A DNA stretch of 64,000 bases from Escherichia coli (GTDB lineage: Bacteria; Pseudomonadota; Gammaproteobacteria; Enterobacterales; Enterobacteriaceae): assembly GCF_024502345.1 (NCBI RefSeq), contig NZ_JALDNN010000001.1; one strand, given 5' to 3'. Positions 30,551 to 30,650 of the stretch are shown here, piece after piece. Position 1 is the stretch's first letter, and each line of letters opens with the position of its first letter. The position numbers were made by a program, and so were the translations under genes. Under the pieces are notes generated by a model. That model saw nothing but the letters and a program-made list of their open reading frames with translations. It did no database searches and was not told where the DNA came from.

Positions 30551-30629
30551 AATTTTACCTCCACGTTAAGTTCTGGAGCGCACTTTACGCAGGCGGCATA
30601 ATCCTGTAAACGTGATGATTCAGGATGAG

Positions 30630-30650
30630 TTAATGAAGGATTTTCACTAA
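30630..30650. promoter_or_regulatory. Candidate LysR-type operator dyad in the ycaK-ycaN divergent intergenic region
   Basis: TTAATGAA-ggatt-TTCACTAA: imperfect 8-bp inverted repeat (one mismatch), 21 bp overall, abutting the ycaN start codon. Confidence 0.3.

Follow-up and report, generated by a model that had tools for sequence, protein, structure and literature searches.

A conserved T-N11-A dyad between the divergent genes ycaK and ycaN of Escherichia coli is a predicted recognition site of the LysR-type regulator YcaN

We analysed a stretch of 64,000 nucleotides of the Escherichia coli chromosome (contig NZ_JALDNN010000001.1 of assembly GCF_024502345.1), which we call the window and whose positions are counted from its first letter. 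Between the divergent genes ycaK and ycaN it contains the dyad TTAATGAA-GGATT-TTCACTAA at 30630..30650, centred on 30640, which we consider likely, from its pattern of conservation, to be the recognition site of YcaN, the LysR-type regulator encoded right beside it. A preliminary description of this DNA had proposed a LysR-type operator here, and this proposal is supported in silico by a T-N11-A core inside an inverted repeat in a divergent gap, by half-sites that are conserved above neutral expectation and without RNA covariation, by a centre that lies at -66 relative to the mapped start of ycaK (LysR sites being centred at about -65), and by the co-inheritance of the two genes in unrelated contexts. 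The full scheme, in which YcaN would activate ycaK and repress ycaN, draws on family knowledge and on the precedent of CrgA and mdaB, and we lean towards it with some reserve. In kind this is a textbook LysR arrangement, not previously described for the ycaK/ycaN pair; our literature search found no published description of a ycaK/ycaN operator.

Regarding the region itself, the gene order is pflB (+), pflA (+), ycaK (-), ycaN (+) and ycaM (-) according to the RefSeq annotation. The start codon of ycaK (29960..30550, minus strand) occupies 30550-30548 and the ATG of ycaN (30650..31558, plus strand) begins at 30650, which leaves a gap of 99 bp (30551-30649), identical in K-12 MG1655. Direct reading of the sequence bore out both this divergent 99-bp gap and the imperfect dyad, with its N5 spacer, abutting the ycaN start. 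The left arm TTAATGAA covers 30630-30637, the spacer GGATT 30638-30642 and the right arm TTCACTAA 30643-30650, so that the dyad ends on the A of the ycaN ATG. The arms are complementary at 7 of 8 positions, the mismatch being A30633 against C30647, and they enclose the T-N11-A core (TGA-N7-TCA) at 30634..30646. The annotated start of ycaN is backed by 18 orthologs, every one of which starts at the aligned methionine.

YcaN orthologs (52-79% identity) were found across Enterobacterales and beyond, and 13 orthologous loci were compared with that of E. coli: Rahnella, two Cedecea, Enterobacter sp. Ag1, Gilliamella, Pseudocitrobacter, Hafnia, Serratia, a Budviciaceae genome, Shimwellia, Leminorella, Pantoea and one assembly labelled Salmonella. 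In all 13 a Flavodoxin_2 gene is divergent from the LysR gene across a gap of 97-102 bp, and the divergent arrangement is also kept in Pseudomonas and Janthinobacterium. The flanking genes differ in nearly every one of the 13 genomes and ycaM is absent from the orthologous cassettes; therefore ycaK, the gap and ycaN make up a two-gene cassette that does not include ycaM. When the 14 gaps (E. coli plus the 13 loci) were aligned, the dyad was the best-conserved window of 21 columns. The mean pairwise identity was 0.88 in the 16 arm columns, 0.73 in the spacer and 0.52 in the remaining gap, whereas in the first 90 codons of ycaN it was 0.82, 0.91 and 0.42 at codon positions 1, 2 and 3 respectively. 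Thus the arms are conserved to an extent comparable to the first two codon positions of the YcaN DNA-binding domain, and 16 third-position columns picked at random never reached 0.88 in 100000 draws. Moreover, E. coli, Rahnella, both Cedecea and Enterobacter Ag1 share an identical GTTAATGAAGGATTTTCACTAATG, the YcaN proteins of these other genomes being 66-69% identical to that of E. coli.

The conserved positions are arranged as would be expected for a dimeric protein. All six bases of the core (T30634, G30635, A30636, T30644, C30645 and A30646) are invariant in the 14 aligned gaps, and the invariant positions are symmetric around 30640 (T30631/A30649, T30634/A30646, G30635/C30645 and A30636/T30644). 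Both arms fit the half-site TTARTGA, which gives the consensus TTARTGA-N7-TCAYTAA around the T-N11-A core. The position that makes the dyad imperfect is the R of the half-site, where the left arm of E. coli reads A and the right arm G (as C), an order that is reversed in Shimwellia; such a swapping of A and G between arms is expected for two identical protein subunits. Among the conserved centres of symmetry in the gap the dyad ranks first, and its two half-sites are conserved independently, as predicted for a dimeric DNA-binding protein. In the 64-kb window the site itself is the only match to the family motif without mismatches; the next-best match has 2 mismatches and lies inside ycaM, and the total count of matches equals that expected by chance.

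The same conservation could, in principle, belong to the translation-initiation region of ycaN, or to an RNA hairpin masking its Shine-Dalgarno sequence, instead of to protein-binding DNA. Actually, the ycaN Shine-Dalgarno sequence GAAGGA (30635..30640, plus strand, 9 nt before the ATG) lies within the dyad, where it runs from the left arm into the spacer, and pairing of the arms could give a stem of 8 bp closed by a loop of 5 nt. Nevertheless, we consider this explanation very unlikely. The arms are more conserved than the spacer that carries the Shine-Dalgarno sequence (0.88 against 0.73), and ribosome binding fails to explain the symmetric invariant T/A, G/C and A/T positions around 30640. 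Furthermore, no compensatory change was seen in the eight stem pairs, the pair at position 4 is unpaired in 11 of the 14 sequences, and the covariation does not exceed that of shuffles. The fold of 30610-30680 has a z of +0.42 relative to shuffled sequences, and its minimum-energy structure does not contain the eight arm-to-arm pairs of the dyad. The hairpin and Shine-Dalgarno masking were rejected on these grounds: the pairs do not covary, mismatches are frequent and the folding energy shows no excess.

The register of the site reaches well beyond the YcaN orthologs. A genome scan gave 88 listed loci outside E. coli whose regulators share the pattern [PSA]SA[IV]SH... of the recognition helix and TTRSV[SA]LTE of the wing. 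An exact TGA-N7-TCA was present at most 60 nt upstream of the matched coding start in 55 of these 88 listed loci, against a background of 0.8% in other 63-nt windows and 1.7% in shuffles. In 54 of 56 occurrences (54 of the 88 listed loci) it was followed by N3 and an in-frame start codon; among these 54 there was a T at -3 of the left arm in 49 and an A directly before the ATG in 50. The resulting register TnnTGA-N7-TCAnnA-ATG spans alpha-, beta- and gamma-proteobacteria among the loci listed, and the divergent partners in this clade are not YcaK but short-chain dehydrogenases, zinc alcohol dehydrogenases, SnoaL-like proteins and a saccharopine-dehydrogenase-like protein. Judged from these sequences, the operator register is a property of the regulator clade, which supports the cognate LysR protein as the binder. 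In 23 of the 54 listed cases the spacer carries both key bases of a -10 element, with A placed at -11 and T at -7 from the ATG (for example TAAAAT), a register that would suit a leaderless regulator mRNA.

A further idea, which we put forward only tentatively, is that the recognition site is welded to the regulator ATG throughout the clade, whether the divergent partner is a flavodoxin-like reductase, a short-chain dehydrogenase, a zinc alcohol dehydrogenase or a SnoaL-like protein, the operator and the regulator gene forming one indivisible, portable unit. If this were true, the purine-rich spacer would double as the ribosome-binding site of the regulator, autoregulation would be physically coupled to the initiation of translation, and a promoter placed about 30 bp away would suffice to recruit a new target.

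Another explanation of the dyad as such is a chance inverted repeat without function. When the 102-bp region was shuffled 5000 times with its dinucleotides preserved, 37% of the shuffles held at least one comparable dyad (arms of 8 bp, no more than 1 mismatch, spacer of 0-20). The region itself has four dyads meeting these criteria where the shuffle mean is 0.74, and T-N11-A alone is nearly uninformative. In the single sequence the dyad is not above chance, even though such a dyad with a spacer of exactly 5 occurred in only 3.7% of the shuffles, and the single-sequence statistics were dropped as support because the dyad is not significant alone. Its significance comes instead from its conservation across genomes: the near-invariance in the 14 aligned gaps, while third codon positions are 42% identical, and the repeated occurrence of the core at one fixed register across the clade effectively refute a chance repeat.

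Regarding the promoter of ycaK, a consensus scan gave a -35 hexamer TTTACA (30605..30610, minus strand) and, 17 bp from it, a -10 hexamer TAAAGT (30582..30587, minus strand). The -35 hexamer lies within the nearly invariant plus-strand block ATAATyCTGTAAA and the -10 hexamer within the nearly invariant block ACTTTACG at 30582-30589; in the 14 aligned loci there are no alignment gaps between the two hexamers or between them and the dyad. In NC_000913.3 the coding sequence of ycaK begins at 949,668, and the shift from U00096.2 to NC_000913.3 at ycaK, which we take to be 777 bp, was used to place the transcription start site. This shift fits the 776-bp offset between two MG1655 assemblies, and also the peaks of chromatin immunoprecipitation with exonuclease digestion (ChIP-exo), which land on their stated genes only once shifted. 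The start site reported by Cappable-seq on the plus strand at U00096.2 948,867 (PMC4782308 supplement) then corresponds to the A at 30574 of the window (minus strand, about ±1 nt), with a 24-nt leader and 8 nt past the -10 hexamer.

Because the Cappable-seq start site maps to 30574, with which the conserved hexamers agree, the centre of the dyad is at -66 relative to the ycaK start, its T-N11-A core at -60 to -72 and the whole dyad at -56 to -76. According to a review of the family, LysR regulatory sites lie at about -65 (PMC11495319); -66 is the canonical position of a LysR recognition site. Closer to the promoter, the conserved block ATTCAGGATG (ATTTGAGATG in most genera) at 30618..30627, which is -44 to -53 and alignment columns 74-83, is a candidate promoter-distal activation sub-site. 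A weaker second centre of dyad symmetry (30598..30619, centre 30608.5, about -34.5) lies 31.5 bp from the main dyad and overlaps the -35 hexamer; with a mean of 5.3 of 11 complementary pairs it is the second-best centre of the gap, and we tentatively list it as a candidate promoter-proximal activation sub-site, a reading confounded by the conservation of the -35 hexamer itself.

Two other elements were read on the ycaK side of the gap. The ycaK Shine-Dalgarno sequence GGAGG (30558..30562, minus strand) is partly conserved. A third imperfect dyad of the E. coli sequence, CGTTAAGT-N10-ACTTTACG at 30564-30589, extends across the ycaK -10 hexamer and start site, and it is probably due to chance, since its left arm is unconserved in other genera. 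On the ycaN side, a promoter scan gave only weak candidates, such as CATAAT at 30597-30602, with no conserved -35 hexamer; no ycaN promoter was found in an earlier study either (PMC9308461).

The mechanism that we propose follows the general behaviour of the family. One winged-helix pair of the YcaN oligomer would bind both TTARTGA half-sites, which are one helical turn apart, and a second DNA-binding pair would reach the weaker sites around -50 to -35. An inducer would then shift the oligomer, as in the established LysR 'sliding dimer' scheme on which this step is modelled, and RNA polymerase would be recruited to the weak ycaK promoter TTTACA-17-TAAAGT. On the other side, the site would lie in or just downstream of the ycaN promoter, and its occupancy would bring about negative autoregulation; since the site extends over the ribosome-binding region of ycaN as far as the ATG, occupancy should hold ycaN transcription down. 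It is only analogy that suggests a quinone-like inducer.

YcaN has been studied only by high-throughput methods. As the preliminary description had noted, and in agreement with the literature (PMC11495319, PMC9068703), neither gene has an established function or inducer; a review from 2024 gives the function and the inducer of YcaN as unknown and the ycaC and ycaD promoters as its targets (PMC11495319), an assignment for which the evidence is indirect. A ChIP-exo experiment with myc-tagged YcaN in glucose M9 medium reported six peaks, at cspE, ynjB, yobF, ung, rho and yihQ, with signal-to-noise values of 1.06-4.45 (PMC8464067). After conversion of their U00096.2 coordinates, the best motif matches in these six peaks had 4-5 mismatches, the same as random DNA, and three of the six (yobF, yfiD/ung and yihP/yihQ) coincide in position with peaks of other regulators in the same data set. 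RNA sequencing of a ycaN deletion in M9 with threonine reportedly showed ycaC down and ycaD and focA up (PMC9068703). The footprinting of LysR regulators in PMC5002191 covered six other regulators, and YcaN was not among them. In the same ChIP-exo publication, Dataset S4 labels a YfeD site at 939,919 as 'ycaN', though ycaN is about 8 kb away in U00096.2 (PMC8464067).

Several of these points weigh against YcaN acting at the dyad in the way proposed. The ChIP-exo experiment found no peak at ycaK/ycaN (PMC8464067), and it is the only in vivo binding data set for YcaN, and negative; it was probably insensitive for this regulator, because its peaks lack the motif and three of them coincide with those of other regulators, and we take it as uninformative for YcaN more than as evidence against the site. 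In the accessible part of PMC9068703, ycaK is not named among the genes changed in the ycaN deletion, although deletion of a LysR regulator in the absence of its inducer often alters its target little. No copies of the motif were found near focA, ycaD or ycaC within the 64-kb window. Besides, the candidate activation sites are weak, inseparable from the conservation of the promoter and without clear likeness to the half-site, the proposed geometry of autoregulation is provisional, and the conservation of the spacer may come in part from the ycaN Shine-Dalgarno sequence. To these has to be added the frequency of comparable dyads in the shuffled gaps given above.

YcaN might also bind the site solely to autoregulate its own gene, ycaK not being a target and the ycaK promoter being conserved for other reasons. 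The contact of the dyad with the ycaN ATG fits this explanation, as do the clade-wide fixing of the operator relative to the regulator start codon whatever the partner gene, and the silence on ycaK in the accessible part of the deletion study (PMC9068703). However, the distance between the dyad and the ycaK hexamers is free of alignment gaps in the 14 loci, and with its centre at -66 relative to the mapped start of ycaK the dyad has the geometry from which the family activates. Besides, the two genes stay together in genomic contexts that are otherwise unrelated, and in E. coli O157:H7 ycaK and most of ycaN have been lost as one deletion. Taking both sides together, we regard pure autoregulation as improbable.

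It is even less probable, in our judgement, that the dyad is the site of another regulator, that is, a paralogous LysR protein such as AaeR (QseA), or Nac, CRP or Fur. Some published data do point in that direction: genomic SELEX (systematic evolution of ligands by exponential enrichment) with effector-free QseA, with more than 50 sites, reportedly included ycaN (PMC8249747), ycaK is described as a predicted Nac target (PMC9068703), and in one study ycaN was induced by FeSO4 (PMC9308461). The QseA match is compatible with cross-recognition of a clade-typical LysR site, and we count it as weak evidence. Against all of them, the site travels with ycaN into otherwise differing genomes and contexts, which points to the regulator encoded next to it. 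The gap between aaeX and aaeR, moreover, has a different dyad, 21 nt from the ATG. Manual comparison with consensus sequences was unconvincing for the other three: by eye no ATA-N9-TAT, as for Nac, was seen in the gap, the spacing is wrong for CRP (N7 between TGA and TCA), and the match to the Fur consensus is 10 of 19.

The two proteins agree with the roles proposed for them at the predicted YcaN site. YcaN has the domains PF00126 (HTH_1) and PF03466 (LysR_substrate), and its structure matches were 3mz1 (E = 2.4e-34), 3hhg, which is CrgA (E = 5.9e-31), and 3szp, which is AphB (E = 5.8e-29). Its PxG hinge, P91-T-G93, is invariant in 19 orthologs and aligns with P-Q-G of CrgA; a rigid PxG hinge in place of GxxG is a motif described in PMC11495319. 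From its full-length similarity, its domains and this hinge, YcaN is classed by sequence as a member of the CrgA/AphB-like subgroup. The residues S32, S35 and R55, picked out for DNA contact in the CrgA structure paper (PMC2724274), and the wing TTRSV are invariant across the YcaN orthologs. Regarding the proposed target, YcaK matches PF02525 at 3.9e-40 and the equivalog family NF007280 with 353 bits where the cut-off is 162, and its nearest solved relatives are flavoproteins of the NQO1/NQO2 and KefF types. By family membership it is an NAD(P)H:quinone oxidoreductase-type protein with a flavodoxin-like fold, its activity being a prediction.

Downstream of the regulator gene, the coding regions of ycaN and ycaM abut at their ends with no spacer (31558/31559), and this pair has been listed as a convergent 'excludon' (PMC12288877). 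In Shimwellia and Pseudocitrobacter a ycaD-like gene of the major facilitator superfamily directly follows the regulator gene.

The cassette is not universal in the species. The ycaK-ycaN gap is present in 3327 of 5426 complete E. coli genomes, the cassette missing from about 39% of them, and therefore any YcaN/YcaK response would be strain-dependent. In some 1000 other genomes, O157:H7 among them, nothing but the final 255 or so bases of the query is left, which are the 3' end of ycaN and ycaM. In the O157:H7 strain 2571, pflA is followed by 98 nt, a 111-nt remnant of the 3' end of ycaN and then ycaM, as a clean deletion matching 29960-31445 of the window. Smaller lesions were also seen. In strain A30, copies of the insertion sequence IS1 interrupt both ycaK and the gap, the latter at the -10 region of ycaK, with the dyad intact beside ycaN; among other strains (including L3452210II) one has IS2 in ycaN and another a frameshift in ycaK. 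Many truncated protein clusters occur among the YcaN homologues.

One more signal was noticed at the other end of ycaK. The strongest Cappable-seq start site nearby on the ycaK strand is at U00096.2 949,457 (score 20.4), which corresponds to 29984 of the window (minus strand), 24 nt before the ycaK stop codon and just downstream of the promoter-like TTCACG-18-TATTAT (30021-29992). A transcript from this site would run into the hairpin at 29888-29917 shared with pflA and would be about 100 nt long. The entry 'ycaK.3UTR' appears as an RNA interaction partner in a study by RNA interaction by ligation and sequencing (RIL-seq), and the transcript region at 29984 had no match to an Rfam family. This transcript may be a small RNA derived from the 3' untranslated region of ycaK with its own promoter.

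YcaN is among the remaining transcription factors of E. coli K-12 without a function, an inducer and a defined binding site. What is gained here is a precise predicted operator of 21 bp with the half-site consensus given above, a mapped target promoter and a geometry of -66, and the weak published ChIP-exo peaks of YcaN can be re-evaluated against a defined motif.

Finally, the arrangement can be compared with three known systems. AaeR (QseA) of E. coli, a paralog in the same LysR subgroup as YcaN, is divergent from its target operon aaeXAB, and the AaeR family model matches YcaN at 5.5e-35; AaeR binds its own gap (PMC8249747). Nevertheless, the aaeX-aaeR gap is 182 bp and its clearest dyad, GTGAT-N4-ATCAC, has another register and spacing, and both the inducer (aromatic carboxylic acids) and the target (an efflux pump) of AaeR are known, unlike those of YcaN. 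As a footprinted model for the same register, AaeR was uninformative because of this different dyad and position. The ycaK/ycaN gap resembles the generic LysR operator, as in CbnR and BenM, in its T-N11-A dyad, its centre near -65, its overlap with the region from which the divergent regulator is expressed and its weaker conserved sequence around -50 to -35. It departs from that scheme in two ways: the activation sub-sites are not clear copies of the half-site, and the site is fused to the ycaN start codon (3 nt from TCA), in the leader, instead of lying over a mapped regulator promoter.

The closest characterised relative of YcaN is CrgA of Neisseria meningitidis (3HHG), which has two T-N11-A sites in the gap to the divergent gene mdaB, activates mdaB, represses itself and is induced indirectly by alpha-methylene-gamma-butyrolactone (PMC2724274). 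The overall similarity is modest, YcaK is not MdaB, site 2 of CrgA reads TGA-N5-TCA where the YcaN dyad has N7, and octamer formation and induction by alpha-methylene-gamma-butyrolactone are known for CrgA only. One CrgA site oligonucleotide ends in ...AATCAGATG, with a final ATG that may be the crgA start codon. However, the two proteins align over their full length with the same numbering (E = 6e-31, residues 1-289), and S32, S35, R55, the NRTTR...SLTE wing and the PxG hinge are all kept in YcaN. CrgA and YcaN are each encoded divergently from the gene of an NAD(P)H quinone-type oxidoreductase, with T-N11-A sites in the gap. This comparison connects YcaN/YcaK with the CrgA/MdaB paradigm, in which a LysR regulator is paired with a quinone-type reductase, and it suggests a response to electrophiles or quinones.

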